Translations under genes and position numbers: made by a program
Shown: positions 35,366 through 48,205 of the stretch, piece after piece
Numbering within the stretch: position 1 is the stretch's first letter
Layout: each line of letters begins with the position of its first letter
The notes under the pieces: model-generated
The model's input: only the letters and a program-made list of their open reading frames with translations
Database searches by the model: none
What the model was told of the DNA's origin: nothing
Source: a virus
Direction: 5' to 3' (one strand)
DNA: 48,816 nt
Virus record (IMG/VR): IMGVR_UViG_3300027917_000023

Positions 35366-35908
35366 ATGTATGGAATACGTATAGAATACGACATGTATGA
35401 TATGTGGGCAATAACGTCCGAACTACGAGCAAAAGACCCAATAAAGATCGTCACTGTAAAAGAAATATTTGGGCCGTTAGCTCAGCGATTCGTTGACCAG
35501 ATTGGTGGGCGTACTAGAATGGGATGGGTGCTGCAAGATAACACAGGTGATGCTGTCAAATTAAGTCGCAAATTCGGGATTGAAGAGTGTAAGTTGTGTG
35601 TAGAAAGCAGGTTGACCGGCTGGCATGTACTTGGTGACACCAAAGAATCGTTAGATATCACGGTTGTGGTCGAAGCAAGCCCAAAAGTGCTAAGCAACCC
35701 TGACCGTAAAAGCGTATGGATTAGAATGGTAGTCGTCGACGAGGCAAATGGGTATCAACGACACATATTCTATAGTGATGGGACACTTTTTTATTATTGG
35801 GGGCGCACCAATTCTATAGTGTTCACCCACGCCCTCAGGTATGGTGCAGTATTAGATTTGGAACTGGTAGCCATATTAAGAGAAAAGATGGAGTCGCATG
35901 AATTGTAA
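35366..35908 (+). CDS. Hypothetical protein (180 aa)
   Basis: ORF only. Confidence 0.5.
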   Translation: MYGIRIEYDMYDMWAITSELRAKDPIKIVTVKEIFGPLAQRFVDQIGGRTRMGWVLQDNTGDAVKLSRKFGIEECKLCVESRLTGWHVLGDTKESLDITVVVEASPKVLSNPDRKSVWIRMVVVDEANGYQRHIFYSDGTLFYYWGRTNSIVFTHALRYGAVLDLELVAILREKMESHEL

Positions 35909-36407
35909 AGAAGAAGAAGACGAGCTTGCCACAATAGTGTATGAATTCCTTATCGAAAATGGATATAAAAAGGCTCCAGGCCCGCATAAAGTAATCATCA
36001 GAGGAAGAACGTTCCACATAAGCACAAGGAAACCAGGTTGCGTTTCGTTGAGTACATGTGCGCCGTTAACGTGTAGCATAGTCTCGTGGTTGTATGAACC
36101 AAATGGGCTACAAAGGCTGCTTGACAAAGTAAAAGAGTGTGAAAACAGAAACTGTCATTCATGTGATAATTCAATATTATATAAGATGTACGCTTCATCG
36201 AGCCAGGCGATAGCCATTTTGACAGCATCTATGTCAAAATATTCAATATCTATGTCAAAATTGGCCGTAAAATCAATGTCGCTACAATCTATAGTTAAAA
36301 TATTCAAACAAAAGCAAGCCATGGACAAAGCAATGGCTGAATACTTGACAAGAAGGGCTTTGCCTGTTACCATGTTTTTCAAAGGAGGGGAAAATGGACT
36401 TTCTTGA
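35898..36407 (+). CDS. Hypothetical protein (169 aa), related to the small paralog family
   Basis: N-terminal 'IVYEFLIENGYKK' and internal 'LYEPNGLQRLLDKV' resemble the family motifs. Confidence 0.5.
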   Translation: MNCKEEEDELATIVYEFLIENGYKKAPGPHKVIIRGRTFHISTRKPGCVSLSTCAPLTCSIVSWLYEPNGLQRLLDKVKECENRNCHSCDNSILYKMYASSSQAIAILTASMSKYSISMSKLAVKSMSLQSIVKIFKQKQAMDKAMAEYLTRRALPVTMFFKGGENGLS

Positions 36408-36582
36408 TTGGATTGGGGCATTATTTGGTTCCTTCATCTTTTCAGCCATTGGATTATGTCCTGGAATGCATGATGACGACGATGAGCCCGAACGTTGTCC
36501 AGCAACTGGGTGGGTCATCACCAACACTGACGAAGATGGGAACGAATATACGATGAAAGATGGACCTGGCGGTACTAAATAA
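36394..36582 (+). CDS. Small membrane/acidic protein (62 aa)
   Basis: ORF with a hydrophobic N-terminus and a DDDDE stretch. Confidence 0.4.
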   Translation: MDFLDWIGALFGSFIFSAIGLCPGMHDDDDEPERCPATGWVITNTDEDGNEYTMKDGPGGTK

Positions 36583-36808
36583 TGCCAATGCGTTCCCGAT
36601 GTATTTAATGTGTCAGGTTCTGGTCAAATGTAAATAGGGTGGGATTTCCCACCACGTTCAGAGAGATTCTAAGAAGTGGAATTCAGACCCTTACAGCCCG
36701 AACGACTTAGGTCACGGCATTGGCTGCCAACAGGTAGCCCGTGTGTCGTGGCCGAGGTCGCGACGACCAAGATTAAAGGATATGATTCCTTTAATCAAGG
36801 CTCGGCAG

Positions 36809-36888
36809 GGCCGTAAGGGGTTAAGAACATTCTGGAAACCAATCAAGACCCCTTGCGGCCAACCGGCCTCAAGGGGTCTTGCTTTATT
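36809..36888 (+). promoter_or_regulatory. Attenuator-like element: intrinsic terminator hairpin with an overlapping, mutually exclusive upstream helix
   Basis: 36844-36855 (caagaccccttg) pairs perfectly (12 bp) with 36870-36881 (caaggggtcttg), followed by ctttatt..ttttt. But 36849-36860 (ccccttgcggcc) can instead pair 12 bp (one G-U) with 36809-36820 (ggccgtaagggg). Confidence 0.35.
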
Positions 36889-36898
36889 AGGACTTTTT

Positions 36899-36972
36899 GC
36901 GAGCATCGTTCAATGGTAGGACGTGAGACTTCCACTCTCAAAATGAGGGTTCGATCCCCTCTGCTCGCACCA
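36899..36972 (+). tRNA. tRNA-Gly (anticodon TCC)
   Basis: Acceptor gcgagca/tgctcgc. Anticodon arm tgaga-cttccac-tctca. T arm gaggg-ttcgatc-ccctc. 3' ACCA. Confidence 0.8.
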
Positions 36973-37014
36973 GGACAGACGTGGGATCTGGAGCGGTTTA
37001 GTCACCGTTAAGGA

Positions 37015-37040
37015 TACTCACGGCGGGTGAGGTGTTTTTT
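37015..37040 (+). terminator. Putative intrinsic terminator (weak stem) after tRNA-Gly
   Basis: ctcac-ggcgg-gtgag hairpin followed by gtgtttttt. Confidence 0.3.
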
Positions 37041-37187
37041 CTGTGCCTTTTGGGACCACCAGCGTTCACTCAAAAAAGGCACCGTGTTATGAAAGGACTC
37101 AGAAACGGGGACGCAAGGCGTGAGATTTGCTAGACTGGCACTTGGATCGCTGGTGCTCTCGTGGAGACCCAAGTAATAGCACGTTAT

Positions 37188-37263
37188 GGGCGTGTAGCTC
37201 AGTTGGGAGAGCGCTTGCTCGGCAGGCAAGAGGGCGTCGGTTCGATTCCGATCACGTCCACCA
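37188..37263 (+). tRNA. tRNA-Ala (anticodon GGC), with G3:U70
   Basis: Acceptor gggcgtg/cacgtcc gives G3:U70. D arm gctc-agttggga-gagc. Anticodon arm cttgc-tcggcag-gcaag (position 33 is C, unusual). T arm gtcgg-ttcgatt-ccgat. 3' ACCA. Confidence 0.75.
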
Positions 37264-37278
37264 GAAAGGAGGTGAAAG

Positions 37279-37377
37279 ATGTCAAGGAGAGCAAAGAAGG
37301 AGGAGAGGAACAGGCGTCGTAAGATGCAGAAGAAGGAAGAGGATGCTAAGAGGAAAGAGAAGAAAGCTAAAGACTGA
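37279..37377 (+). CDS. Tiny highly charged peptide (32 aa, MSRRAKKEERNRRRKMQKKEEDAKRKEKKAKD)
   Basis: Perfect SD aaaggaggtg 8 nt upstream of the ATG, wedged between two tRNAs. Confidence 0.25.
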   Translation: MSRRAKKEERNRRRKMQKKEEDAKRKEKKAKD

Positions 37378-37434
37378 GCTAGGTAGGAAGCTTTGGGCAA
37401 TCAGACAGAAAATTGCTTTAGAAAGGCATGGAAT

Positions 37435-37506
37435 GGGTCGCGCTCTGGGTAAGCGGGTCGGTCTCCAAAACCGACAGCCTGCGGGGTTCGATTCCTCGGC
37501 GGCCTG
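37435..37506 (+). other. tRNA-like element with a Trp-type (CCA) anticodon arm and canonical T arm but no convincing acceptor pairing; possible pseudo-tRNA
   Basis: D-like arm cgct-ctgggta-agcg. Anticodon arm tcggt-ctccaaa-accga. T arm cgggg-ttcgatt-cctcg. The 5' end does not pair with the 3' end. Confidence 0.25.
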
Positions 37507-37547
37507 TTAGAAATGGCTACGAATTTCTGGTGGATTCTAAAATTTAC

Positions 37548-37624
37548 GGCCCCGTAGCCAAATGGATGAAGGCACCGGATTACGAATCCGGCAATTGCAA
37601 GTTCGAATCTTGCCGGGGTCACCA
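37548..37624 (+). tRNA. tRNA-Arg (anticodon ACG)
   Basis: Acceptor ggccccg/cggggtc. Anticodon arm ccgga-ttacgaa-tccgg. T arm gcaag-ttcgaat-cttgc. 3' ACCA. Confidence 0.8.
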
Positions 37625-37758
37625 CGCTCTTGAGTGAGCGAGTTCTTTGACAATTATGGCCGTGGGTGCGCTTGCGGCAACGGGCCAAACGCGGCATGCG
37701 TGTCGTAGGCTCTGAAAGTAAGCATCCGGGCTAGGAGCAATCCTAGCCCTTATGGGGA

Positions 37759-37791
37759 CGGGCCGGGTAACTCCCGGCCCTCCCCTCCTTT
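37759..37791 (+). terminator. GC-rich hairpin (gggccggg-taact-cccggccc) followed by a C/T-rich tract; weak terminator candidate
   Basis: 8-bp GC stem, but the T-run does not start until 8 nt after the stem. A second hairpin gggctagg-agcaat-cctagccc lies at 37727-37748. Confidence 0.25.
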
Positions 37792-37817
37792 TACCTCCAA
37801 TAGATATTATCAAAGCT

Positions 37818-37893
37818 GGGGCAGTGGTGTAGTGGCTAACACACTGGCCTGTCAAGCCAGAGATCGCGGGTTCAAGTCCCGTCTGTCCCGCCA
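37818..37893 (+). tRNA. tRNA-Asp (anticodon GTC)
   Basis: Acceptor ggggcag/ctgtccc. Anticodon arm ctggc-ctgtcaa-gccag. T arm gcggg-ttcaagt-cccgt. 3' GCCA. Confidence 0.85.
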
Positions 37894-38346
37894 GGCCCAG
37901 AGATTTGGGTTCAAATCCCATGACCAGCAGGATGAGTAAGCCTGTTGTGATAGCTTAATCTGGTAAAGTGCTGGGCGTGATTACGAAGCCAGAAAATACT
38001 GGCACAATATAGAGAGAAACCGGAAGCGGGGGTTCGAATCCCTCCCATCGCAGGATGAATAAACCTGTTCGGGTGGCCTAGTCATGAGTTGGCTTGCAGA
38101 ATGAATAACTCTGCTTGGGGCTATACCTGGTGGTAGTTTAGCGGCAGAACGCCGGTTCGAAAATGAAGCCAGAGGCGCGGGTTCGATTCCCGCCTCCCCC
38201 CTCATCTAGAGGGCTAGGATGAGTAAGCCTACGCAGCGGGGAGTAGCTCAGTGGTAGAGCACTGGCTAAAAGAAAAGCCAGAGATAACCCCTGGGCAAGC
38301 AGTGGGATGAGTAAGCCCACTCAGGTAGGATTAACTCTGGCATTAA
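37894..38346 (+). repeat. Array of degenerate tRNA-like units (5' and 3' half-like pieces related to tRNA-Asp/Arg) separated by a conserved 13-nt motif GGATGAGTAAGCC (4 copies)
   Basis: Motif at 37930-37942, 38053-38065 (ggatgaataaacc), 38217-38229 and 38305-38317. Each is preceded by variable/T-arm/acceptor-3'-like sequence and followed by acceptor-5'/D-arm-like sequence (e.g. 38231-38262 cggggag-ta-gctc-agtggta-gagc-a-ctggc). No unit folds into a complete cloverleaf. Confidence 0.5.
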
Positions 38347-38421
38347 TCCGGCGTGGCCTAACGGAAAGGCGGCGAGCTGTTAACTCGTAAGATGGTGGTT
38401 CAACTCCACCCGCCGGAGCCA
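38347..38421 (+). tRNA. tRNA-Asn (anticodon GTT)
   Basis: Acceptor tccggcg/cgccgga (U1-A72). D arm gcct-aacggaa-aggc. Anticodon arm gcgag-ctgttaa-ctcgt. T arm ggtgg-ttcaact-ccacc. 3' GCCA. Confidence 0.75.
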
Positions 38422-38439
38422 ACCAGCGTGGTCCTCTAC

Positions 38440-38545
38440 AAGAATTTCAGACGTTCTCTTTGGGAGGTTGCAGGTTCGAGTCCTGTCCCCCGGATCATCC
38501 GGGGGTAGCTCAATTTGGTAGAGCGCTAGTCATTTTATTCTTGTT
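38440..38545 (+). other. tRNA 3'-half (T arm + acceptor 3' strand) joined through a 3-nt loop to a tRNA 5'-half (acceptor 5' strand + D arm): candidate circularly permuted tRNA or decayed tandem duplicate
   Basis: gcagg-ttcgagt-cctgt then cccccgga (38487-94), tca, tccggggg (38498-505), then ta-gctc-aatttggta-gagc-g-ctagt. The 8-bp acceptor complement forms a hairpin across the junction. Confidence 0.4.
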
Positions 38546-38646
38546 CAATGACCCGCATTTTTAATAATTTTTCATCGGGCTCCGCGCCGGACTTAGTCTC
38601 CATAAGTATTTTAATCATAGAATTACGTTAAGGACAAAAGAGGTGT

Positions 38647-38877
38647 ATGATGGTCAGGATCGGTGCCGTTGCGGGAACCGCTGCAGTAGCAGTAACATAC
38701 CTCATAATCTTCTTCATCATGTCTAACCTAGAGCGAAAGCATGGGCAGACACCTAACTCTGATTACATGGCAGGTGTATTGGGTGTGCTTCTGGCGTGTG
38801 GGGTTCTATTGATAGATCTAATCTTCTTCATCGTATGGATCGTGAGCAATTTTGGGGCGGTAGCTCAGCCTGGTTAG
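38647..38877 (+). CDS. Small two-TM membrane protein (paralog B of 35135..35350)
   Basis: 76-aa ORF MMVRIGAVAGTAAVAVTYLIIFFIM...LIFFIVWIV, with SD aaaagaggtg. Confidence 0.5.
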   Translation: MMVRIGAVAGTAAVAVTYLIIFFIMSNLERKHGQTPNSDYMAGVLGVLLACGVLLIDLIFFIVWIVSNFGAVAQPG

Positions 38878-38884
38878 AGCATAT
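38855..38884 (+). pseudogene. tRNA 5' fragment (acceptor + D arm, ggggcgg-ta-gctc-agcctggtta-gagc) with no downstream anticodon or T arm
   Basis: Canonical 5' third of a tRNA, overlapping the end of ORF 38647 and the RBS of ORF 38907. Confidence 0.35.
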
Positions 38885-38906
38885 GGTAAAACATTGGAGA
38901 TAACAA

Positions 38907-39119
38907 ATGAATATCATCCTACCATTCGAATCATTTCCTTTACTATACGAATCACGAACCAGGACCCTCAAAAATGGTCAGAAATACAGGATCATTATGT
39001 ATCGCAATGGACGCCAGAGAATAATCGGGTTCTACGTAAAAGATTATAATGATGGTTGGTGTGTCTCACATTCAATTGGCGTTACTAAAAACGACCTAAA
39101 ACGAATGTTAGAATGTTAA
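38907..39119 (+). CDS. Hypothetical protein (70 aa)
   Basis: ORF with SD ggagata. Confidence 0.45.
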   Translation: MNIILPFESFPLLYESRTRTLKNGQKYRIIMYRNGRQRIIGFYVKDYNDGWCVSHSIGVTKNDLKRMLEC

Positions 39120-39193
39120 TTGCCCCGTCGTCTAATGGTAGGACGCCAGGTTCTGGCCCTGGCAGTGAGGGTTCGAAACCTTCCGGGGCAACC
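39120..39193 (+). tRNA. tRNA-Gln (anticodon CTG)
   Basis: Acceptor tgccccg/cggggca (U1-A72). Anticodon arm ccagg-ttctggc-cctgg. T arm gaggg-ttcgaaa-ccttc. 3' ACCA. Confidence 0.8.
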
Positions 39194-39265
39194 AAATGGA
39201 TGTTGATTGCTTATAAATATGGCCTTGATTTTTTCCACTTTACTTCATATATCAGAGGGACAATT

Positions 39266-39619
39266 ATGGATAGAGAACCATGCAAACTAGTGGTAGCGTG
39301 GTTGCAAGAAAAAGGAGTACAAGCTTTTTTGTCCCCAAGTGGCTTGGCAATTCATAAAAACGGCAAACCAGTAGTGATGTTCATTATTGACTTAGATCTG
39401 AATTTAATCGTCGTATCGTCGCATAAAAAATTTATCAATCTATCAAGAAACTACGACTTAAATAATCCAGATAGTTTGCCAAATTTATACGACAGATTGG
39501 TAAGCCTGGGCTATCACAATTACAAGCCAACAGAACGCGACTATCACTATTGCTATGATAAAAACTTTGAAATTAGGTTAAACGGCAACGCAGAGCAAGA
39601 CGAATGTGGATACAAATAG
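39266..39619 (+). CDS. Small paralog-family protein (117 aa; C-terminal ...LNNPDSLPNLYDRLVSLGY...)
   Basis: ATG with SD agaggg. The ORF-track start 39113 overlaps tRNA-Gln and is rejected. Family motifs present. Confidence 0.55.
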   Translation: MDREPCKLVVAWLQEKGVQAFLSPSGLAIHKNGKPVVMFIIDLDLNLIVVSSHKKFINLSRNYDLNNPDSLPNLYDRLVSLGYHNYKPTERDYHYCYDKNFEIRLNGNAEQDECGYK

Positions 39620-39621
39620 GA

Positions 39622-39638
39622 GCGGTGGCGTAACGAGA
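39622..39638 (+). pseudogene. Truncated copy of the tRNA-Phe 5' end (gagcggtggcgtaacg), identical to 40047-40062
   Basis: A 17-nt exact match follows a TAG stop, exactly as at the intact tRNA-Phe. The downstream sequence does not fold. Confidence 0.4.
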
Positions 39639-39719
39639 TGGACGGGGCTTCCGGCAAGAACCTGCATGATCAGGATAGTTTCCAAAAATACTCAATTTTA
39701 TTGAAGAAGAACTGAATCC

Positions 39720-40046
39720 ATGGTAGAAATCGAAAGGTTGGTGATGGAGTTCCTTCGCGAGAAAGGATATTGGGTTATCCACGAACCCCGGTACAATAGG
39801 TTTCGGGTTATTAAAGTAACAAGAGGCGAGCATTTTGAAACACAAATATTATTGGCAATTTACACAATTGTTGGTGATAAAATATGTATAATGTACGCAA
39901 AATTTCACCCAAAGCCGTTTAGCATTTACAGCAAAGAAGATTTCGCTAAAATGCTCAAGTTTTTGAAACAAAGGGAACGCGATAGCGCAGATGTCATGCA
40001 TTCAACATCGACTGGCTGGGATACACAACACTACACAGCGGTATAG
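39720..40046 (+). CDS. Small paralog-family protein (108 aa; N-terminal MVEIERLVMEFLREKGYWV...)
   Basis: ORF. Its stop codon overlaps the first base of tRNA-Phe. Confidence 0.55.
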   Translation: MVEIERLVMEFLREKGYWVIHEPRYNRFRVIKVTRGEHFETQILLAIYTIVGDKICIMYAKFHPKPFSIYSKEDFAKMLKFLKQRERDSADVMHSTSTGWDTQHYTAV

Positions 40047-40121
40047 GAGCGGTGGCGTAACGGAAGCGCAGCGCACTGAAAATGCGCAGGTGATCGGGTT
40101 CGACTCCCTCCCGCTCCACCA
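40046..40121 (+). tRNA. tRNA-Phe (anticodon GAA)
   Basis: Acceptor ggagcgg/ccgctcc. Anticodon arm gcgca-ctgaaaa-tgcgc. T arm imperfect (tcggg-ttcgact-ccctc, 3 bp plus mismatches). 3' ACCA. Confidence 0.65.
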
Positions 40122-40216
40122 GATCCACCTGCTAAAAGTCTAACAGAAATAAAAAATGCTCAGTAAGATGCGCTCATAGATTCACAATGGAAGAAATTGA
40201 TTGCACAACACTTCGA

Positions 40217-40292
40217 GGGCGGGTAGCTCAGTTGGGAGAGCGTCTGGTTTGCAACCAGAAGGTCGTCGGTTCGATTCCGATCCTGTCCACCA
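40217..40292 (+). tRNA. tRNA-Ala (anticodon TGC), with G3:U70
   Basis: Acceptor gggcggg/cctgtcc gives G3:U70. D arm gctc-agttggga-gagc. Anticodon arm tctgg-tttgcaa-ccaga. T arm gtcgg-ttcgatt-ccgat. 3' ACCA. Confidence 0.85.
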
Positions 40293-40358
40293 GAGATGAG
40301 GTCTTCACACTTACAATCCTTCTACGTGACCTACATGGATATTATAGAATACATTTAT

Positions 40359-40445
40359 GCGTCGGCTGAGCATTGGCGAGCTCAAGTGGCTGTAACCCAC
40401 CCGCCCTTTGCGGCTTTGGGGGTTCGACTCCCTCCCGGCGCACCA
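40359..40445 (+). tRNA. tRNA-Tyr (anticodon GTA), class II with long variable arm
   Basis: Acceptor gcgtcgg/ccggcgc. Anticodon loop ctgtaac. Variable arm ~13 nt (cgccctttgcggc). T arm ggggg-ttcgact-ccctc. 3' ACCA. Confidence 0.7.
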
Positions 40446-40473
40446 GAATTGGCCCCCAGGCTCCATTATCTAC

Positions 40474-40618
40474 GGCTGGGGTTGAGTCGAGATGCTCGTA
40501 GCAGCTCGGCAGCGCATAAACTAGTGGGAGACACCGTTGAGACTCTGTTGAAACTCGACAGGTCGCTAAACCGGCCCCCTCAATGTTGTGACGCTTGCAC
40601 AAGCTATCGACCCCAGCC
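40474..40618 (+). ncRNA. Structured non-coding element (~145 nt) closed by an 8-bp helix
   Basis: ggctgggg (40474-81) pairs with ccccagcc (40611-18). Nested helices gtcgag/ctcgac and cgag-atg-ctcg. No plausible ORF. Sits between tRNA-Tyr and a tiny ORF. Confidence 0.3.
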
Positions 40619-40654
40619 AACCAGCGAAGACCTATTAGCGAAAGGAGGTGTCGA

Positions 40655-40726
40655 TTGAAGTGTACTTGCTACGACAGAGAACAAACTGCTGTTCCTTTGT
40701 GTCCAATACACGGTTCACCAATGTAA
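40655..40726 (+). CDS. Tiny Cys/His-containing peptide (23 aa, (M)KCTCYDREQTAVPLCPIHGSPM), TTG start
   Basis: Strong SD aaaggaggtg 6 nt upstream of TTG. Too short for any assignment. Confidence 0.2.
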   Translation: MKCTCYDREQTAVPLCPIHGSPM

Positions 40727-40802
40727 TCTTGGGGGTTGCGCATCCATAACACGCAAATGGGAGTTGTTCCACGACCAGCCACCCATTTATCATTAAAGGC
40801 CA

Positions 40803-40848
40803 CGAGTTTTGCAGACTCGCGTGGAAAGTTCGATTCCTTCAACTCTCA
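40803..40848 (+). pseudogene. tRNA 3'-part-like fragment (Ala-type anticodon arm cgagt-tttgcag-actcg + T arm) lacking a 5' acceptor
   Basis: Anticodon-arm and ttcgatt T-loop features are present, but there is no pairing 5' strand. Confidence 0.3.
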
Positions 40849-40852
40849 TAAA

Positions 40853-40926
40853 TGCCCCGTAGTGTAATGGAAGCACGAGCGGCTTTGACCCGCTTAGCGA
40901 AAGTTCGAACCTTTCCGGGGCAACCA
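40853..40926 (+). tRNA. tRNA-Gln (anticodon TTG)
   Basis: Acceptor tgccccg/cggggca. Anticodon arm agcgg-ctttgac-ccgct. T arm gaaag-ttcgaac-ctttc. 3' ACCA. Confidence 0.8.
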
Positions 40927-41115
40927 GATCACCCGAGCCACCGCTGGAAACAGAGGAAGGTCAGGACACCACTGCTTAAGGTGGGAGGGAATTTTCCCGC
41001 TTACCACCAAGGGTGCAATCTCAAGCAGGCTGAGAGTGTGAGCAGCTCTACGAAAGCCGGGTAGAGAGCAAAGATTAATGGTGGCATAGAACAGAATCCT
41101 GCCTACTGGGTGATC
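40927..41115 (+). ncRNA. Structured non-coding element (~190 nt) closed by an 8-bp helix
   Basis: gatcaccc (40927-34) pairs with gggtgatc (41108-15). Internal helices ggtgg/ccacc and gctctac/gtagagc. Contains ggaaggtcagg. Starts at the base after tRNA-Gln. Confidence 0.3.
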
Positions 41116-41175
41116 TTTGATATTAAAGTATTTTATTACTCGTTTATATGATTCACATCAAAACCTGATAACTAT

Positions 41176-41326
41176 GGGGAAGTAGCTCAACAGGATAGAG
41201 TTAGTATGGCGGACCTACATCTTGTAGTCCTATCTATCGGCTAGTGCAGATAGGCAACGCCAGATGGACGGACCGTCAGAATACCCCGTATGGGTGACGT
41301 GGGTTCGAGTCCCACCTTCTCCACCA
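41176..41326 (+). tRNA. tRNA-like element (151 nt) with canonical acceptor stem (G3:U70), D arm, T arm and ACCA end, plus a ~75-nt internal insertion in place of or within the anticodon region
   Basis: 5' ggggaag-ta-gctc-aacaggata-gagt. 3' gtggg-ttcgagt-cccac-cttctcc-a-cca. The 7-bp acceptor includes G3:U70. The insertion forms hairpins ggacctac/gtagtcc and cctatct/agatagg. A possible class-II-like variable hairpin ccc-gtat-ggg is present. Confidence 0.35.
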
Positions 41327-41623
41327 ATGGAAACAACAGAAATATTGAAAGAATTAATCGATGAGCTTGGATATCAAGCCATAATTTATGATCTCATACC
41401 GCATTGGATCGGCGAATGTTACCGAACTATTGATGTAATCAGCCCCAGTACGTGGCCACGCAATAACGTAATCGCTACTATCAAGGTTGACGGCGTCTTC
41501 ATACATATCTTTAAGCGTGTTCTCGGAGGCCGGGGGCGTATAGAATCTAGCCATCAGCTAAGTTTATACGAACCGGATTCATTCTGTAGAATAAAAGAAA
41601 TATTAGCTGAATTAAATGACTAA
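41327..41623 (+). CDS. Small paralog-family protein (98 aa; METTEILKELIDELGYQAI... / ...LSLYEPDSFCRIKEILAELND)
   Basis: ATG immediately follows the CCA of the upstream tRNA-like element (0-nt spacer, no SD). The ORF-track start 41264 lies inside the tRNA-like element and is rejected. Confidence 0.55.
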   Translation: METTEILKELIDELGYQAIIYDLIPHWIGECYRTIDVISPSTWPRNNVIATIKVDGVFIHIFKRVLGGRGRIESSHQLSLYEPDSFCRIKEILAELND

Positions 41624-43067
41624 AAAGAAACAAAAAGAACTTGATTTCATGAACGATCCACGGTACCATTACCAAAGGTCGCATGTGTCTGATGTCGTTG
41701 GAACGATCGATATTGATCGTTATCTCAAATGGTGTAAAGACAATGGATTCAAGGCTACCATATACAAAAGTTGGTTTGACATGAAGAAGGAAAAGTTGTA
41801 CATCGCCAGAAAGAAATGCGACGAAAAACTGTTGGCCAGAAGGAAATTCAAGAATCCAAGGAAAGCACTGGATCTCGTGTTCGACTCAGACATCGTCGGC
41901 GCTGACGCGGCGTACAAAAATTTATACTCTAGAATAAAAACACTCAACAAGAAAGACAAAACCAAGTTCAAAAAGCTTATTACACATATCTACAAACATT
42001 CTGATATCCTCAAAGACCCGCCGTTGATAACGGGACTCCTGAACATCATGAAGTGGGAGCCTTATTACATAAATCGCCCAACGGAGTGGATGCCTAAGAC
42101 ACATAACACAAGAAGACAATTTTCTGATTTGCTTAGGCATTCTTTCTGCAAATACGATGTGCCAAAATTCATGGACGAGGTGTGGTTCTCCGAATATGAC
42201 GGAGCAATAGCCGGAGCAATAGCTGCTGAACTCAAGAGGGAATGGTTCATTTTCATTGGCCAGGGAGGAAATCTTAGGAAGGCTAGGAAACTACCATTCG
42301 AGGTGACGAAGAAGATCGCGCATTATTTTATGCAGGCTCCTGGCAATTTTTCAGTTGAAAACGCACTAATATGGGGAGTCGTGCACAGCATGGGCGGCGA
42401 CAAACGAACCGTCGAGGGCATCCTCAGCACCAAAAGAAACGGACAGCTTAATCGACACAATTTCTGGGTAACGGTCTATAGATTCTTCGTCAACAACCCG
42501 ATGCTAGACACAGCCCAATACAACCCAATCGTCGACTATATCGATGCCATGAAATATCAACCGCAATATGAATGGACGGAACCAGGCATCAGAGTGGAGC
42601 GCCCGCCGATTCAGCCGAATTTTATGATGCGTGGAAGAACCGCTTTCTCGCTGTTAAGGCAAGTGGAAGCCTGGCATAAGAAACTCGGCAAAGAGAAGAA
42701 AGGTGGGAAACTACAATGGGAGAAGAGTAAGTATAATGGATTTGAGTGCCAGACCGGTGAAAGAAGGAACGTCAAAATTTGGACTATCAACGAATTGTTG
42801 TCAAGCGATGAGCTAATACAAGAAGGGAAAACAATGCGGCATTGCGTGGCGTCTTACGCTCGTTCCTGCCAGAGCCAAAGGGTCAGCATTTGGTCGATGA
42901 AGGTAGATACATGGGAAGGCAAGAAGAACGTACTGACCATCGAAGTCAGAGATGGAACAATCATGCAGGCCCGTGGCAAGAGAAACGAAAGACCCACAGA
43001 GGAAGCCAAGAACATCATAAAAAAGTGGAAGAAAACCCAAGGTCTCGGAATCAGTTCTTATATTTAA
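41616..43067 (+). CDS. PcfJ-like domain protein (483 aa)
   Basis: C-terminal region 'ELIQEGKTMRHCVASYARSCQSQRVSIWSM' resembles the conserved core of PcfJ-like proteins. This is an inferred family resemblance, not a search result. Confidence 0.45.
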   Translation: MTKKKQKELDFMNDPRYHYQRSHVSDVVGTIDIDRYLKWCKDNGFKATIYKSWFDMKKEKLYIARKKCDEKLLARRKFKNPRKALDLVFDSDIVGADAAYKNLYSRIKTLNKKDKTKFKKLITHIYKHSDILKDPPLITGLLNIMKWEPYYINRPTEWMPKTHNTRRQFSDLLRHSFCKYDVPKFMDEVWFSEYDGAIAGAIAAELKREWFIFIGQGGNLRKARKLPFEVTKKIAHYFMQAPGNFSVENALIWGVVHSMGGDKRTVEGILSTKRNGQLNRHNFWVTVYRFFVNNPMLDTAQYNPIVDYIDAMKYQPQYEWTEPGIRVERPPIQPNFMMRGRTAFSLLRQVEAWHKKLGKEKKGGKLQWEKSKYNGFECQTGERRNVKIWTINELLSSDELIQEGKTMRHCVASYARSCQSQRVSIWSMKVDTWEGKKNVLTIEVRDGTIMQARGKRNERPTEEAKNIIKKWKKTQGLGISSYI

Positions 43068-44707
43068 AACATATTCACAAGTACAGACGTTGTGAAAACC
43101 GAATCGTCATAATCAACTACTTCGCCATCTTTCACGATGACATAATATAGAGTATTGTCTGGCGGCACACCAAGCTTTGGGTAAAAATGCTCACCACCGA
43201 ATGCTGCGTCTTCATCGTGCGCAATAGGGGTGAAGTAAAATAATGCCTTAAAATTATTTGGGAAGTCGTAATTATGCCTAATGGTATTCAAAAAATCGGT
43301 TAACCCAGATGGTGGCTCACCGTCTCTGGTGCGCTCAAATGCCGAAGCAAACTCTTCTCTATATAATTTGTTGAGATCAGCTGTAGCATAGTCTAAACTA
43401 GTGAGCACACTAGTTAGCTTTGTCACCAACCCAGACTGCCCTTGGGCATGCAGAAACTCACGAGGTGTAAATGACGTACCCTTTGGTGCGTCAAGCACAT
43501 CTTCCATTTCTCTTTGTCTATATTCTCTGTATCTATACGTCTTTTGAGCTATATCCTTGGCTTCGTCCTCTCTGTCCTTGTAATTATCGTACGTAAATCT
43601 GATATCAAAATGCTTGACTTCTTCTTTTTCACCAGTAACTATCGTCATAAGTATCGTAAATACCGATGGATCCTTGAAAACAAGAGGAAAGTGAATATAC
43701 CACGGTTCATTACTATTTGGTGGTTCCGGATATGGTGCTACTTTAACAACCGTGGCATCCCCTTCTTCGTCATCGCCGTATGCGTCAGAGTATGCCATAC
43801 CATACATCTTGTCCCTGATGCCCGTCTCAAATCCTAGTTGCCCTTTGCTCTTAATCCAATCTCTAGCTATGCCTTCTAAGTTGTTTGTAGTATCTTCACC
43901 ATATGCTTCGTCTTCTGGCATTGCTTTGAATCTAACATCACCAGTTGCCGGATTTATAAACATAAATTTTCTTATCATTATCCTGGCGGTTGGATCTTGG
44001 ATACCTTGCTCCGGATGGATTCCATTTTTCCTAAGAACATCTTTCTTAACAAGATACATTATGAAACCACCACACATTATTTCATACCATGCCTTGGTTG
44101 CTTCTCTTATATTAGTACATGATGTCCACCCTCGGTCTTCGCTCATCCTTAGAATATCAACTGGGCTTTTGGAGACTATAACCCAATAATCATTTGGGTT
44201 GACAATTTCTCTGTGCTCAAAATCATCTGCCATCCGTTGTAGGTGCTCTTGATAATTTTCGTAGTTTATACCTTCCATTTCACCATCAACAAATTTTCCG
44301 CCATATTTGTCTACATACCCATATGTGAATAAATTCTTTTCATGTGGCTTCTTAGCTTTTCTCAGTATTTTACCGATTCTTAGCAGATTGCCTCTATAGT
44401 TAACATAACCCTTAATAAGATCAACACCACCAAGCCCAACAGCATATTCAAGTGTGTCTTCCAGCCTCTCCAACCAAATAGTTCTTTCGACAGCTGGTTC
44501 GGCATCAAACTCCTTTATTAAAACCCTATCTTCATCAATCTTATTTGGATCATTCTCAAACCATTCATCAAAGACAGACTGATCGCGTGCTAGCCTATAG
44601 AGGGTGTGAAGCTCTTCCTTGCTGAGATCCTCAAGGATAGGGTCAACAAGAAAGCTGACGTATTCTGGGTCAACCATCTCCCTTATATTTTCCAGAAAGT
44701 ATTTCAA
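43064..44707 (-). CDS. Large hypothetical protein (547 aa), encoded opposite to the surrounding island
   Basis: Long ORF. 'KYGGKFVDGEMEG' weakly resembles a ligase/nucleotidyltransferase KxDG motif, but this is unproven. Confidence 0.55.
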   Translation of the reverse strand: MKYFLENIREMVDPEYVSFLVDPILEDLSKEELHTLYRLARDQSVFDEWFENDPNKIDEDRVLIKEFDAEPAVERTIWLERLEDTLEYAVGLGGVDLIKGYVNYRGNLLRIGKILRKAKKPHEKNLFTYGYVDKYGGKFVDGEMEGINYENYQEHLQRMADDFEHREIVNPNDYWVIVSKSPVDILRMSEDRGWTSCTNIREATKAWYEIMCGGFIMYLVKKDVLRKNGIHPEQGIQDPTARIMIRKFMFINPATGDVRFKAMPEDEAYGEDTTNNLEGIARDWIKSKGQLGFETGIRDKMYGMAYSDAYGDDEEGDATVVKVAPYPEPPNSNEPWYIHFPLVFKDPSVFTILMTIVTGEKEEVKHFDIRFTYDNYKDREDEAKDIAQKTYRYREYRQREMEDVLDAPKGTSFTPREFLHAQGQSGLVTKLTSVLTSLDYATADLNKLYREEFASAFERTRDGEPPSGLTDFLNTIRHNYDFPNNFKALFYFTPIAHDEDAAFGGEHFYPKLGVPPDNTLYYVIVKDGEVVDYDDSVFTTSVLVNMF

Positions 44708-44712
44708 TAAAT

Positions 44713-45072
44713 ATGGAGATACATGACTTAATTGCTGAAGCGTTAAAGGATTTAGGCCACACAGAGATTCTAAAGAGTGGAAAGATTAGAGTCACTACTG
44801 GTATAGGATCTGCCAGATTCAAAATAACCGATATGAAATTCACGTGCTGTTCAGCAACTACTGACGCTGGCAATACACTTGAAATAGATCTGCATGAACC
44901 AGACAGCATAAGAAAAGTCGCAATAATGGTACTAAAATGTTTACATCGTCGTCATGCTTGGGATATCTATTACTTGCCATGCTCATCATGCCCATTTAAT
45001 CTAGAATCTAAAAATGGGCCAGTGATCGCATCACCAGAAAGACACCTTAGAAATAATCCAAATAAATTATGA
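44713..45072 (+). CDS. Small paralog-family protein (119 aa; MEIHDLIAEALKDLGH... / ...IDLHEPDSIRKVAIMVLKCL)
   Basis: ORF with family N- and C-terminal motifs. Confidence 0.55.
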   Translation: MEIHDLIAEALKDLGHTEILKSGKIRVTTGIGSARFKITDMKFTCCSATTDAGNTLEIDLHEPDSIRKVAIMVLKCLHRRHAWDIYYLPCSSCPFNLESKNGPVIASPERHLRNNPNKL

Positions 45073-45389
45073 AAGACATAGAAATAATTGTGCTGGCCAT
45101 AAACAAAATGGGTTACAGAATACGCAGTACAACCCGAAACAGTAGCAACGACGACATTGTAGTGTCGCTCGAAGGCTTCAATGACGAAACTGAATATAGG
45201 TTTGTTTCAATCACAGTTAGAGGTTCAAGACTCAGGCTATCTAACTGCCAATACGAAATAGACCTGTGTGACCCTGATAGCCTTAGGCTCCTAAACAAAG
45301 CAATCGACTATCATGGAACATTGCCTAAAAATTATTCGTGCAGCAAATGCCCGTTAAATATTTATTTGATTGGCACTACGTTCATGTAA
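45069..45389 (+). CDS. Small paralog-family protein (106 aa; MKDIEIIVLAINKMGY... / ...IDLCDPDSLRLLNKAIDYHG)
   Basis: ORF overlapping the previous gene by 4 nt. Family motifs present. Confidence 0.55.
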   Translation: MKDIEIIVLAINKMGYRIRSTTRNSSNDDIVVSLEGFNDETEYRFVSITVRGSRLRLSNCQYEIDLCDPDSLRLLNKAIDYHGTLPKNYSCSKCPLNIYLIGTTFM

Positions 45390-45391
45390 AT

Positions 45392-45463
45392 GCGGCTATG
45401 GTGTAATGGTAACACGTCGGTCTGCCAGTCCGGAGATGCTGAGTTCGATTCTCGCTAGCCGCT
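45392..45463 (+). tRNA. tRNA-Gly (anticodon GCC)
   Basis: Acceptor gcggcta/tagccgc. D arm gtgt-aatggta-acac. Anticodon arm tcggt-ctgccag-tccgg (4 bp plus a 31:39 mismatch). T arm 4 bp (tgag-ttcgatt-ctcg). No encoded CCA. Confidence 0.6.
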
Positions 45464-45465
45464 TA

Positions 45466-45538
45466 AGGTCAGAGATCCGGGTTCAAATCCCGGCGGTACC
45501 GGCCATACTGTAGCTTAACTTGGTAGAGCGCTGGCCAC
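45466..45538 (+). pseudogene. tRNA fragments: 3'-half-like (gtcagagat-ccggg-ttcaaat-cccgg-cggtacc) followed by a 5'-fragment gtagcttaacttggtagagcgctggcc
   Basis: The 5' fragment is near-identical to 38506-38532. The 3'-half resembles the fragment following tRNA-Asp at 37894-37930. Confidence 0.3.
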
Positions 45539-45540
45539 GA

Positions 45541-45614
45541 GTCCCTGTGGTGTAACGGTAGCACGGCACTCTGATAAGGTGTAGGCGAAGGTTCAACTCC
45601 TTCCAGGGGCACCA
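45541..45614 (+). tRNA. tRNA-Ile (anticodon GAT)
   Basis: Acceptor gtccctg/caggggc. D arm gtgt-aacggta-gcac. Anticodon arm gcact-ctgataa-ggtgt. T arm gaagg-ttcaact-ccttc. 3' ACCA. Confidence 0.8.
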
Positions 45615-45926
45615 ATGAACGAATGTGAAATGATAGCAAAAGAGCTACGAATCCATGGCGTCAAAGCGTTCTATAACGACGAACATATGTTTGGGATAAT
45701 CAAACCGCACACGCCAATGTATAGCAGTAGCAAATACGGAGATAGTGGCTTCGGGAGGTTGGTCACATTCACGGTTAAGGATGGGATAATAATCTGCTCA
45801 GATAAAGACCGGATTTATAATTTACACGAACCAAGATCATTGGGTCAGCTCATAAAGTCAATCAAGTTGTGTGAACAAAGGACAAGTTGCCATCAAAAAT
45901 GCGAGTTTAAAAGCCGAAATATGTGA
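45615..45926 (+). CDS. Small paralog-family protein (103 aa; ...IYNLHEPRSLGQLIKSIKLCEQ...)
   Basis: ATG directly abuts the CCA of tRNA-Ile (0-nt spacer, no SD). Confidence 0.55.
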   Translation: MNECEMIAKELRIHGVKAFYNDEHMFGIIKPHTPMYSSSKYGDSGFGRLVTFTVKDGIIICSDKDRIYNLHEPRSLGQLIKSIKLCEQRTSCHQKCEFKSRNM

Positions 45927-46200
45927 AATCTTGGAGAAGTCGCTTATATACCACGGCTTTGTCGTCGTATGGAGTGACAACAGCCTCGGGCCCTATATAA
46001 TTTATAAGCAACAATCATCCCTTATTGGTGGGAAAATAGTTGATTCTTTCCCGCATGGCACGGTGCACATAATTATTGATAATTTAGTGTTAAATAGATT
46101 CCCATCCAACCACACAGTGCCAGCAAAAATACCACTTGCCGATCCGGATTGCTTCAATAAAGCAGTTGAATTTATAGTATTTGACAGGTTGCGATTGTAG
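45871..46200 (+). CDS. Small paralog-family protein (109 aa; ...PLADPDCFNKAVEFIVFDRLRL)
   Basis: ORF. Its last codons and stop (ttg cga ttg tag) form the 5' acceptor of tRNA-Gly(CCC). Confidence 0.5.
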   Translation: MNKGQVAIKNASLKAEICEILEKSLIYHGFVVVWSDNSLGPYIIYKQQSSLIGGKIVDSFPHGTVHIIIDNLVLNRFPSNHTVPAKIPLADPDCFNKAVEFIVFDRLRL

Positions 46201-46261
46201 TTCAATGGTAGAACATGAGCTTCCCACGCTCAAGACGGCGGTTCGATTCCGCTCAGTCGCT
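46191..46261 (+). tRNA. tRNA-Gly (anticodon CCC)
   Basis: Acceptor gcgattg/cagtcgc. D arm gttc-aatggta-gaac. Anticodon arm tgagc-ttcccac-gctca. T arm ggcgg-ttcgatt-ccgct. No encoded CCA. Confidence 0.75.
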
Positions 46262-46264
46262 TCA

Positions 46265-46339
46265 GGTGGCTGTAGCTCAGTGGTAGAGCGTCGGGTTGTG
46301 GCCCCGAAGACGGCGGTTCGATTCCGCTCAGTCGCCCCA
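46265..46339 (+). tRNA. tRNA-His (anticodon GTG) with encoded G-1 and C73
   Basis: g-gtggctg/cagtcgc. D arm gctc-agtggta-gagc. Anticodon arm tcggg-ttgtggc-cccga. 3' half (agacggcggttcgattccgctcagtcgc) identical to tRNA-Gly(CCC). 3' CCCA. Confidence 0.85.
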
Positions 46340-46366
46340 GATGATTAGTGAAAACTTTCTATTTGA

Positions 46367-46453
46367 TTGCAGAGAAGACGCACAAAGCTGAATCTTTATG
46401 ACCCAGAATCATTACCACACTTATTGAGAGCAATTAAGAATGGCAATCGATGA
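46367..46453 (+). pseudogene. Remnant of a paralog-family gene: C-terminal 28 codons only (...KLNLYDPESLPHLLRAIKNGNR*)
   Basis: The family C-terminal motif reads in frame after a stop codon with no start. It overlaps the start of the intact copy at 46440. Confidence 0.3.
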
Positions 46454-46826
46454 TGGTTATATAATTTATGGCAACAAAACCATTATATGCAACAGTACTA
46501 AAACACCGAATTATACGGTTTCCCAGTTATACAAATGGTTGTCACACACGTGGAATGATGACAACGCATTAAGCAGGCAAGAAGTAGCTAGTTTGATAAC
46601 CGCATGGTTGTCAGAGAAAGGCTATAATGTTAGAGTTGACAGCCAATGTGGCTGGTCGTTAAACATTGTCAATGGAAACAACAAAGCGAATTTGTATGTC
46701 GAGTCAAACGCTGTGACGATAGAAGTCGATACATATAATAAGATCAAAAGCTATAATCTATATAATCCAGATAGCCTGCAGAAAATATTAGAGCATATAA
46801 GTGTTCTCGGAAGCGGCATGAAGTAG
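46440..46826 (+). CDS. Small paralog-family protein (128 aa; ...SYNLYNPDSLQKILEHISVLGSGMK)
   Basis: ORF with family motifs, including internal 'WLSEKGYNV'. Confidence 0.55.
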   Translation: MAIDDGYIIYGNKTIICNSTKTPNYTVSQLYKWLSHTWNDDNALSRQEVASLITAWLSEKGYNVRVDSQCGWSLNIVNGNNKANLYVESNAVTIEVDTYNKIKSYNLYNPDSLQKILEHISVLGSGMK

Positions 46827-46844
46827 TGGTTGAGGACGGCTCCA

Positions 46845-46919
46845 CGGGCCTTAGTGAAGTTTGGTTATCACGCCACATTTGGGATGTGGAGAGCGCGGGT
46901 TCGACTCCCGCAGGCCCGA
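46845..46919 (+). tRNA. tRNA-Pro (anticodon TGG) with C1:G72 and A73
   Basis: Acceptor cgggcct/aggcccg. D arm gtga-agtttggtta-tcac. Anticodon arm ccaca-tttggga-tgtgg. T arm gcggg-ttcgact-cccgc. No encoded CCA. Confidence 0.8.
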
Positions 46920-46925
46920 TCAATC

Positions 46926-46999
46926 CGCGCCGTGGCCTAATTTGCTAAGGCACCCGGTTCGGGTCCGGGGGATTGCTGGTTGGAATCCAGTCGGCGCGA
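46926..46999 (+). tRNA. tRNA-Pro (anticodon CGG) with C1:G72 and A73
   Basis: Acceptor cgcgccg/cggcgcg. D arm gcct-aatttgcta-aggc. Anticodon arm cccgg-ttcgggt-ccggg. T arm gctgg-ttggaat-ccagt. No encoded CCA. Confidence 0.8.
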
Positions 47000-47076
47000 T
47001 TAGTAGGAGAGACGGCAATGAAACCGCTCAGAAATGTCCAACAGCCCTGAATAATTGCCACAATGACAACCTAATC

Positions 47077-47152
47077 GCCCCCGTAACTCAATGCACAGAG
47101 TAACCGGCTTCTATCCGGTAAGTTGCAGGTTGAAATCCTGCCGGGGGTACCA
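47077..47152 (+). tRNA. tRNA-Arg (anticodon TCT)
   Basis: Acceptor gcccccg/cgggggt. D arm actc-aatgcaca-gagt. Anticodon arm accgg-cttctat-ccggt. T arm gcagg-ttgaaat-cctgc. 3' ACCA. Confidence 0.8.
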
Positions 47153-47190
47153 GAAATGACGGTCGAATATTGCATTTGAATGTGCGGTCA

Positions 47191-47571
47191 ATGGTTTGGA
47201 ATAATGGGAAATTCTTGACTTCTTCACCTACGAAGTATGCTTCCCTTGGCTTTAAATTTACATTGGCAGAAGAACACAAGCTAATAACAACTGTGCTGCA
47301 TGAATTGCAAAATCATTTGCGTACATCTTTACCACTCGGCTACCAATTCTGCTACATCGTAAAGCACGCAGATGAGTCCTGGTTTGAAATGTTTTGTGTA
47401 GTAAGAACAGATTACAACCATCACTGGCGAGTGCGTATCACAATCAGCGGCAATATTATCATAGAGATGGATGGCACACGGACGTACAAATCGACCATAG
47501 CCAATCCAAATTGCTTTGAAGAGATAACTGAACTAATCTGCCATAATGAAGCCAAACAGCTTAGAACATAA
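47191..47571 (+). CDS. Small paralog-family protein (126 aa; ...EHKLITTVLHELQNHLRTSLPLGY... / ...STIANPNCFEEITELICHNE)
   Basis: First ATG in frame. The ORF-track TTG start 47170 is less likely. Family motifs present. Confidence 0.5.
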   Translation: MVWNNGKFLTSSPTKYASLGFKFTLAEEHKLITTVLHELQNHLRTSLPLGYQFCYIVKHADESWFEMFCVVRTDYNHHWRVRITISGNIIIEMDGTRTYKSTIANPNCFEEITELICHNEAKQLRT

Positions 47572-47794
47572 AATCATGGTCGAAGCAGCGTTGAATATCC
47601 GAGATTTACTCGAAGTATGCTTGCCAGAAAATTTTGAATGCGGCCAAATCCACAGCCGCACGGGTCGCTGCGGATACGTTAAATTCATGGTGATACCAGA
47701 CGTAAATTTCGGCGGTGGATATATGGTTGTAATAAAAGATGGCGTCATAAACGTGTATTTCGGGGAGAGGCATGCATTACCAACAGCAGCATGA
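47546..47794 (+). CDS. Small hypothetical protein (82 aa), possibly a divergent family member
   Basis: ORF overlapping the previous gene by 26 nt. Confidence 0.4.
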   Translation: MKPNSLEHKIMVEAALNIRDLLEVCLPENFECGQIHSRTGRCGYVKFMVIPDVNFGGGYMVVIKDGVINVYFGERHALPTAA

Positions 47795-48071
47795 ACCCGT
47801 AAAAAATCAACATGTGCGCCAACCAACGGAAAAAGGATTCTTTCAAAATTCGGTGTTGCAGCAAGACATCCAACAGGAAGGCGTTTAGAAGCGGGAGTAT
47901 CCTCGGGCTGAAAATTACTTGAATAATGCCCTGGGCGGCGGACACCACTCGTTGAGACGTTTTGATGTTTTTCCCTAAGATACCGATATTCTTTGTGAAC
48001 CAGGTTGAAATCTTGTAGATTAAGCCAAGGAGGAAAACAGTGAGAGCGGTAAAGAAGAGGAAATCGAACAT
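47745..48071 (-). CDS. Hydrophobic small protein (108 aa, putative membrane protein)
   Basis: ORF with several hydrophobic segments. Weak, distant SD. The alternative longer ORF 47533..48138 looks like antisense noise. Confidence 0.3.
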   Translation of the reverse strand: MFDFLFFTALTVFLLGLIYKISTWFTKNIGILGKNIKTSQRVVSAAQGIIQVIFSPRILPLLNAFLLDVLLQHRILKESFFRWLAHMLIFYGFMLLLVMHASPRNTRL

Positions 48072-48205
48072 TATTTGGCGACACCATCCTTAAGTTATTC
48101 AAACACAAGCGCATTGAAATCTTAGGAATGTCAGGCAACCGAGTTAATTTTCACACAGTAACCAATTCGTGGCCAAGGATCAAATTAGAATCTTCAGTGG
48201 CGTCC

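Follow-up and report, generated by a model that had tools for sequence, protein, structure and literature searches.

The 48,816-nucleotide virus sequence IMGVR_UViG_3300027917_000023 (the window) is a piece of a large uncultivated tailed phage and carries a family of small proteins whose genes are interleaved with tRNA genes. A first-pass annotation had named 11 open reading frames (ORFs) of this kind between positions 35898 and 47794; all 11 exist with the proposed starts and belong to one family, which has at least 16 copies in this phage. We tentatively read the copies as lineage-specific, anciently expanded, nonenzymatic binding proteins that are expressed from a packed tRNA operon. Small ORFs in tRNA regions are already known from phages T5 and T4; what is new is that one family has expanded to at least 16 copies and that tRNAs and ORFs meet at zero-gap junctions. 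Such ORFs embedded in phage tRNA arrays have so far been ignored; in the present genome, at least 16 of them come from one undescribed family. Because every paralogue is conserved in related phages, the phage has a reason to retain them, and identifying the partners could uncover a new class of proteins for host takeover or anti-defence.

The copies form one highly diverged family

Pairwise similarity between the copies was weak (BLASTP, best E = 2.7e-7; most pairs >0.01), and the family was therefore tested with profiles. In leave-one-out runs using the window copies only, eight of the 11 were recovered at E ≤ 2e-3, with the best decoy at E ≥ 0.13; the values for the copies at 39720 and 45069 were borderline, and 47546 was not recovered because the window truncates this ORF at a sequence break. 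For a stricter test, a 31-member profile was used from which the target plus all its BLASTP relatives at E < 1e-4 had been removed, with 500 composition-matched shuffles per target as decoys. All 16 copies of this phage scored 16.7 to 43.5 bits, the best shuffles 4.9 to 10.4 bits, and for every copy none of the 500 shuffles reached the score of the target. The first-pass annotation would have withdrawn the family if its motifs failed to align significantly above such shuffles; in the strict leave-out test all copies scored above them, and the family stands.

The shared terminal motifs that had been described were recovered in the alignment consensus as xExxxxIxxxLxExG(Y/H/F) and a C-terminal LxxPDS(L/F), and the paralogue identity of 15 to 30% fits the earlier description of the copies as otherwise highly diverged. 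The family was also correctly regarded as uncharacterised: the 31 members gave no consistent match in Pfam, PHROGs, NCBIfam, or PADLOC (two PHROGs matches, each to a single member, and none in PADLOC), and the family profile found nothing among PDB sequences below E = 0.28. The sole family matched by more than one of the 31 members was the LisH-like dimerisation helix, which was sub-threshold in three of them (E = 0.02–0.06; two listed scores of 13.7–14.3 bits versus a cut-off of 21.6) and was rejected.

The array copies of the window lie on the plus strand; bit scores are given below versus the best shuffle. The first copy (35898–36407, 169 amino acids, 32.1 versus 4.9 bits) is of a cysteine-knuckle subtype (KEC...CHSC); its domain spans approximately residues 8 to 100, is followed by a C-terminal extension, and contains the motifs ELATIVYEFLIENGY and LYEPNGL. 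The copy at 39266–39619 (117 amino acids, 21.9 versus 8.4 bits) is of the plain subtype and matched that at 46440 with a BLASTP E value of 2.7e-7. Also plain, with a divergent C-terminal motif (IYSKEDF), is 39720–40046 (108 amino acids, 18.1 versus 7.5 bits), the stop codon of which overlaps the first base of tRNA-Phe; its orthologue on the related contig L003 (2051–2389, 43% amino acid identity) likewise lies directly upstream of tRNA-Phe. The ATG of the plain copy 41327–41623 (98 amino acids, 31.7 versus 6.5 bits) is immediately 3′ of a tmRNA-like RNA ending in ...CCACCA. The copy at 44713–45072 (119 amino acids, 43.5 versus 6.2 bits) has a cysteine knuckle (FTCC, KC, CSSC) and an orthologue at L001 832–1197 (73% amino acid and 69% nucleotide identity). 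Its stop codon overlaps the start (ATGA) of a Cys/His-knuckle copy at 45069–45389 (106 amino acids, 29.2 versus 7.7 bits), which ends 2 nt upstream of tRNA-Gly(gcc) and has an orthologue at L002 1157–1507 (49% amino acid identity).

In the cysteine-knuckle copy 45615–45926 (103 amino acids, 43.5 versus 8.3 bits), the ATG begins at the base right after the encoded CCA of tRNA-Ile (45541–45614). The plain copy 45871–46200 (109 amino acids, GTG start, 17.6 versus 7.0 bits) begins inside 45615 and runs 10 nt into tRNA-Gly(ccc), its domain starting at approximately 45913. The three remaining ORFs are 46440–46826 (128 amino acids, plain, domain at residues 47–128, 31.2 versus 10.4 bits), 47191–47571 (126 amino acids, plain, domain at approximately residues 33–126, 21.3 versus 8.6 bits; 133 amino acids if started at TTG 47170), and 47546–47794, of which 82 amino acids lie in the window because of the break at 47790. 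On the parent contig the latter has 104 amino acids, ends in ...EFNMADPDCFDRVVDHIMDAEGL with the C-terminal motif (NMADPDCF), and in this full-length form scored 16.7 versus 5.5 bits. A decayed copy, placed at 46367–46453 by the first-pass annotation, is real: between tRNA-His (ending at 46339) and ORF 46440, the frame 2 translation of 46364–46450 (plus strand) retains only the C-terminal motif and a relic of the C-terminal helix and reads LQRRRTKLNLYDPESLPHLLRAIKNGNR (stop) / TKLNLYDPESLPHLLRAIKNGNR (stop).

One further copy (7734–8099, minus strand, P0008, 121 amino acids, 24.2 versus 8.4 bits), absent from the first-pass annotation, lies outside the array, 27 kb from it, among replication and baseplate genes; it was the top nonmember match in 10 of the 11 leave-one-out runs. 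Directly past the end of the window, the parent contig carries at least four more copies; 15 of the 16 solid copies of this phage lie inside an array of 27 tRNAs. Approximately 75 kb of the 261,688-bp parent contig were examined, and the copy number of 16 is a lower bound.

A predicted two-layer sandwich with an optional cysteine knuckle

AlphaFold2 models were obtained for a plain copy (46569–46823, m42e0ac1fdd2f; mean predicted local distance difference test score 76.5) and for the cysteine-rich copy 45615 (m37366b22e0d6; 71.4). Both show the same order of one helix, five strands, and one helix, and the predicted fold class is a two-layer sandwich composed of an N-terminal helix, a five-stranded antiparallel sheet, and a C-terminal helix. 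Conservation is confined to structural residues: hydrophobic positions of the helices, the Gly that follows helix 1, and the Pro-Asp-Ser that caps helix 2. No polar or catalytic column is conserved among the aligned members. Loop lengths range widely, and loop and surface residues vary freely.

A set of cysteines (Cys at the end of strand 4, Cys/His at position +16 of the C-terminal motif, and a CxxC tail) is present in 16 of the 31 members; in the remaining 15, neither the +16 Cys (0/15) nor the CxxC tail (0/15) occurs. This covariation points to an optional four-cysteine C-terminal knuckle that is probably zinc-binding.

The net charge is mainly neutral to acidic, with an isoelectric point of 4.6 to 6.8 for most members and of 8.3 to 9.2 for a few basic ones, and the aligned members share no conserved Lys or Arg column and no conserved basic patch. 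The structural neighbours are protein–protein interaction modules, with no RNA-binding domain among the top ones, so that the family has neither the conserved basic surface nor the known RNA-binding fold that generic RNA-binding proteins would show. The fold resembles immunity or inhibitor proteins, for example, TriTu and PsiB. The helix, five-stranded sheet, and helix of the models are also common to Frataxin/CyaY (PF01491). However, the sandwiches similar to Frataxin/CyaY and to YbjN/type III secretion chaperones share only 3 to 17% identity with the family and lack its C-terminal cysteine knuckle, and no member matched the corresponding Pfam families. In Frataxin/CyaY, helix 1 and strand 1 bear an acidic iron-binding ridge; helix 1 of the family has two commonly acidic positions in the consensus xExxxxIxxxLxExG. 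A HicA toxin or double-stranded RNA-binding-like fold (PF07927), which would call for a profile match, a conserved catalytic His, and a topology of helix, three strands, and helix, was rejected.

Tight junctions between tRNAs and ORFs

The array holding the family copies occupies 36899–47152 (plus strand) with 18 tRNA genes in the window (ARAGORN and Rfam) and extends to 27 tRNAs on the parent contig (ARAGORN). The first-pass annotation had each copy next to one or more tRNAs, which holds roughly; the distance to a tRNA varies between 0 nt (45615 after tRNA-Ile) and 491 nt (35898), the copy at 44713 neighbours another copy, and 41327 abuts the tmRNA-like RNA that was not called by ARAGORN.

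Junctions were counted in four nonredundant arrays with 92 tRNAs. An ATG-initiated ORF of at least 60 codons started within 0 to 3 nt of the 3′ end of 22 of the 92 tRNAs, compared with 2.4% of random positions (binomial p = 4e-16), and all 14 zero-gap junctions were preceded by an encoded CCA. At the 5′ side, 20 of the 92 tRNAs were touched by the stop codon of the upstream ORF. Examples are 45614/45615, 41326/41327, 40046, and 45389/45392 in the window and 1156/1157, 1583/1584, and 1913/1914 in L002. The ORFs at tight junctions include many that are unrelated to the family; it is the array, not the family, that is marked by tight packing. As the ORFs are packed within 0 to 3 nt of tRNAs, often with the ATG right after the CCA, tRNA processing would be expected to release ORF mRNAs.

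An exact 20-nt direct repeat, ATAGGAGCGGTGGCGTAACG, occurs at 39616–39635 and 40043–40062, after ORFs 39266 and 39720, respectively. It comprises a stop codon and the first 16 nt of tRNA-Phe, leaving an orphan 5′ fragment of tRNA-Phe behind ORF 39266. The position of this repeat at a tRNA-Phe end suggests that ORF cassettes have been inserted or exchanged with tRNA ends as joints. Nearly all direct repeats in the array are tRNA-derived, and no other repeated DNA motif was found in it.

The closest known counterpart, the phage T5 tRNA region (NC_005859, approximately 28–41 kb), is similar in having a long same-strand run of tRNAs, many small ORFs of unknown function, and tRNA-like stable RNAs. 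It differs in the 11 to 34 nt between a tRNA and the next ORF, versus often 0 to 3 nt in the present clade, and in having homing endonucleases and many mapped promoters; a scan of NC_005859 20000–60000 with the family profile gave no match (best E = 0.45).

Conservation in a narrow clade of phages

Every paralogue has an orthologue in another phage. The two closest orthologue pairs share 73 and 67% amino acid versus 69 and 66% nucleotide identity, with a nonsynonymous divergence (dN) of 0.2 to 0.25; because synonymous sites were saturated, no dN/dS ratio is given. This excess of amino acid over nucleotide identity, together with synonymous saturation, reveals purifying selection at the level of the coding sequences, and the paralogues are therefore old and individually maintained. 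The same tRNA neighbour was kept in three of five orthologue groups (the 39720 type before tRNA-Phe, the 45069 type before tRNA-Gly(gcc), and the L012 12011 type after tRNA-Glu(ctc)) and changed in the two others, the 44713 and 45615 types; for instance, the 44713 type precedes tRNA-Gly(gcc) in the window and in L001 and follows it in L002.

When 1.84 billion representative proteins were searched exhaustively with the profile, 17 matches were obtained, nine of them to proteins of the window itself. Through the eight outside clusters, we reached contigs L001–L009 and L014–L016, mostly from related phages with tRNA arrays. Three further phage lineages with the family were recognised (L001/L016, L002–L004, and L007–L009), in which 25 to 31 tRNAs lie within 12 to 15 kb in a partly shared order, together with several extra members outside the training set (E = 1e-6 to 8e-18). 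Independent members from the parent contig and related phages include L012 11870–12331 (E = 1e-11), L001 793–1194 (8e-18), and L002 3683–4057 (7e-13). The proposed search for the family beside tRNAs in other tRNA-rich phages was thus positive, with the array placement recurring in four related lineages in all. Family copies were also found on four short contigs without tRNAs; the copies without tRNAs nearby comprise the window copy at 7734, L005, L006, L014, and the 2.9-kb contig L015, where the copy lies beside a BNR-repeat protein.

Elsewhere the family was hardly seen. A megablast search of the array against 50,697 phage records gave no match, two IMG/VR scans with single members found no relatives, word-indexed protein searches returned mainly the window's own proteins, and the family is nearly absent from JGI metagenomes, where one scan added one short contig. 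In literature searches, no publication was found on this family, on tRNA punctuation in phages, or on an RNase P RNA encoded by a phage. By sequence, the family is new, very rare, and phage-specific; its fold is common.

On the 1-kb contig L014, the coding strand of 113–1005 is strongly A/C-rich and encodes two adjacent proteins with family domains, the first with two clear tandem domains and the second with one clear and one weak domain; these were the only multidomain forms seen.

RNA elements of the array

A 197-nt RNase P RNA-like element was detected at 40925–41121 (plus strand; RF00010, 66.5 bits at a gathering score of 100, E = 5e-20). It keeps the catalytic-domain motifs GAGGAAGGUCAGG, AGAUUAAUGG, and ACAGAAUCCUGCCUAC and lacks the specificity domain. 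Counterparts occur at L002 601–939 and L003 3124–3421, and a phage with proteins of only 35 to 50% identity has a near-identical core in the corresponding position. Downstream of it follows the tmRNA-like or tRNA-like RNA (41176–41326, plus strand; RF00023, 31.7 bits at a gathering score of 47, E = 5e-11), which has an acceptor stem, a T-arm, and a 111-nt insert; its counterpart is L002 940–1070. The distance between the two RNAs is 54 nt in the window, and they are directly adjacent in L002.

The related arrays contain a selenocysteine tRNA (L002 1914–2004 and L003 4392–4482; RF01852, 74.3 bits at a gathering score of 47), which is located directly 3′ of a family ORF. In the window, the tRNA-free gap from tRNA-Asp to ORF 38647 gave a sub-threshold Y RNA-like match (YrlA, 44.5 bits, E = 3e-7) and further weak tRNA-like matches (38437–38548, 38176–38260, 37944–38052, and 38133–38194, plus strand), and T-arm-like and 5′-acceptor-like repeats were located at 38030, 38179, 38237, and 38854.

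Functional interpretation

According to the reading that we tentatively prefer, the copies would represent a repertoire of binding modules, each for a different partner. The partners would most likely be host proteins, either defence or translation factors, that are neutralised or redirected, and the place of the copies between tRNAs would reflect how this clade builds and expresses its tRNA operon rather than an activity directed at tRNAs. A number of points weigh against this reading. A generic fold class cannot name a function; a Foldseek search against viral structures gave no match at E ≤ 1e-3 and only other uncharacterised phage proteins. The recurring association with tRNA arrays is shared ancestry and not independent evidence, because all related arrays come from one phage clade. 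Co-transcription is an assumption, since scans for promoters and terminators scored no better than shuffles, and the rarity of Shine-Dalgarno-like motifs in front of family ORFs (2 of 11 versus 15 of 28 large genes; Fisher p = 0.07) is a weak difference. In bacteria, tRNAs that encode their CCA are usually trimmed by exonucleases after a cut further downstream, a route that would destroy and not release an mRNA starting at the CCA.

The array might go further and function as a tRNA-punctuated operon like those of mitochondria, yielding leaderless AUG mRNAs, with its own miniature RNase P RNA (40925–41121) aiding excision and with the family as main cargo, acting as binders against host translation factors or tRNA-targeting defence factors. 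We consider this unlikely. In mitochondria, excision of flanking tRNAs frees mRNAs, often leaderless ones, from polycistronic transcripts, and the ORF ends of the array similarly meet tRNA ends, the ATG lying right after the 3′ end and stop codons touching or overlapping the 5′ end. Unlike in mitochondria, only about a quarter of the array junctions are so tight; bacteria also mature the 3′ ends of tRNAs that encode the CCA by a different route. The zero-gap CCA/ATG junctions and the conserved RNase P-like RNA make the formation of leaderless mRNAs by phage tRNA processing a directly testable question. That each protein instead binds, protects, chaperones, or helps to mature the adjoining phage tRNAs, as the first-pass annotation had suggested, would be in line with the 15 of 16 solid copies within the 27-tRNA array, the similar placement in three other phage lineages, and the three orthologue groups that retain their tRNA neighbour. 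This idea found no support and appears quite unlikely because most copies are neutral or acidic without any conserved basic position, the fold neighbours are protein–protein interaction modules, the 44713 and 45615 types swap tRNA neighbours between phages (two of the five orthologue groups), and copies occur away from tRNAs (window 7734, L015, L005, L006, and L014). Moreover, unrelated ORFs abut tRNAs equally, and structural matches to synthetases were no better than those to dozens of unrelated sandwiches. The annotation's other suggestion, an anti-defence role, is plausible from context, given the published evidence that phages use tRNA arrays against tRNA-targeting immunity (PMC10264068, PMC11555353, PMC11464382). 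Proteins that specifically block the tRNA-cleaving defence nucleases of the host (PrrC, Retron or PARIS effectors, Schlafen-like nucleases, and others), coexpressed with replacement tRNAs as a second counter-defence layer, would fit diversified binders in the same operon and the likeness of the fold to TriTu and PsiB. The case is, however, purely contextual: no homology to known inhibitors was detected, and no member matched the partners listed in PADLOC. No direct evidence of anti-defence action was found in this analysis, and inhibition of these nucleases in particular seems improbable.

The co-varying four-cysteine cluster in half of the members and the few basic copies could also point to nucleic acid-binding regulators, with the zinc-knuckle copies binding DNA or RNA and thereby controlling how the array is transcribed, processed, or translated; as the other half has no knuckle, no basic patch is conserved, and the only repeated DNA motifs in the array are tRNA-derived, we regard this as very improbable. 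A role as packaged internal proteins like T4 IPI–III, which a targeting helix at the N-terminus would bring into the capsid and which would disarm the host after injection, was considered because T4 ipI, ipII, and ipIII flank a tRNA cluster and because the T4 targeting sequence MKTYQEFIAE/A resembles family N-termini such as MEIHDLIAEALKDLGH and MNFAEIIAKEL. The present phage is itself T4-like, and IPI, IPII, and IPIII are, like the family, small, polymorphic, and multicopy. Nevertheless, only slight credence can be given to this role: similarity to IPI–III is limited to loosely similar N-terminal motifs, with undetectable homology (family profile only at E ≥ 0.1; no family match among T4 tRNA-region ORFs and internal proteins), and the T4-type peptide (Leu/Ile-x-Glu then Ala at the extreme N-terminus) is lacking, the Glu mostly preceding Phe, Tyr, or Leu and not Ala. 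Eight members carry N-terminal extensions of 8 to 46 residues before the helix, and the predicted fold includes this helix as an integral element. That the ORFs are chance frames or decaying filler without function is hardly credible. The decayed remnant, the low paralogue identity, and the missing Shine-Dalgarno motif in most copies might be taken that way, but this is contradicted by purifying selection in the orthologues and by profile scores far above shuffles, and the two AlphaFold models share a confident topology.

An array ORF of L007 (11066–11530) and L008 (8610–9044), encoding 144 to 154 amino acids, matched the beginning of the Pfam profile of the major capsid protein Gp23 (positions 3 to 51, E = 5e-9), with the Gp23 part fused to an unrelated C-terminus. 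A reading of this match as a capsid-targeting propeptide was set aside; the matched stretch is presumably the N-terminal part of mature T4 gp23 and not the cleaved propeptide.

The phage and its parent contig

Within positions 1–34,500 of the window, the minus strand encodes a helicase, a class II ribonucleotide reductase, the baseplate proteins J and V, and a tail sheath. The best cultured matches of the sheath were to Listeria phage LIS04 (43.3% identity) and Bacillus phage SP-15 (39.9%), so the phage has no close cultured relative; other sheath matches were mainly to T4-type phages, and, judged by the tail sheath and baseplate genes, the phage is T4-like. The coding strand switches at approximately 34.5 kb, beyond which small ORFs alternate with tRNA genes. 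A second paralogous pair in the array, 35135–35350 and 38647–38877 (plus strand), encodes 71- to 76-amino acid proteins (BLASTP E = 3.5e-11) that have the look of two-pass membrane proteins, the long hydrophobic stretches being judged by eye; Pfam gave no match for this pair.

The window is identical to its 261,688-bp parent contig (ENA ERZ27279932, k141_869270) up to position 47789, with the first mismatch at 47790. From there the two diverge completely, and the last 1 kb of the window (47790–48816), which is absent from the contig, gives the impression of a chimeric join or of another assembly. This end encodes a membrane protein, on the minus strand, and a response regulator (48206–48679), both known only from short contigs of other assemblies.

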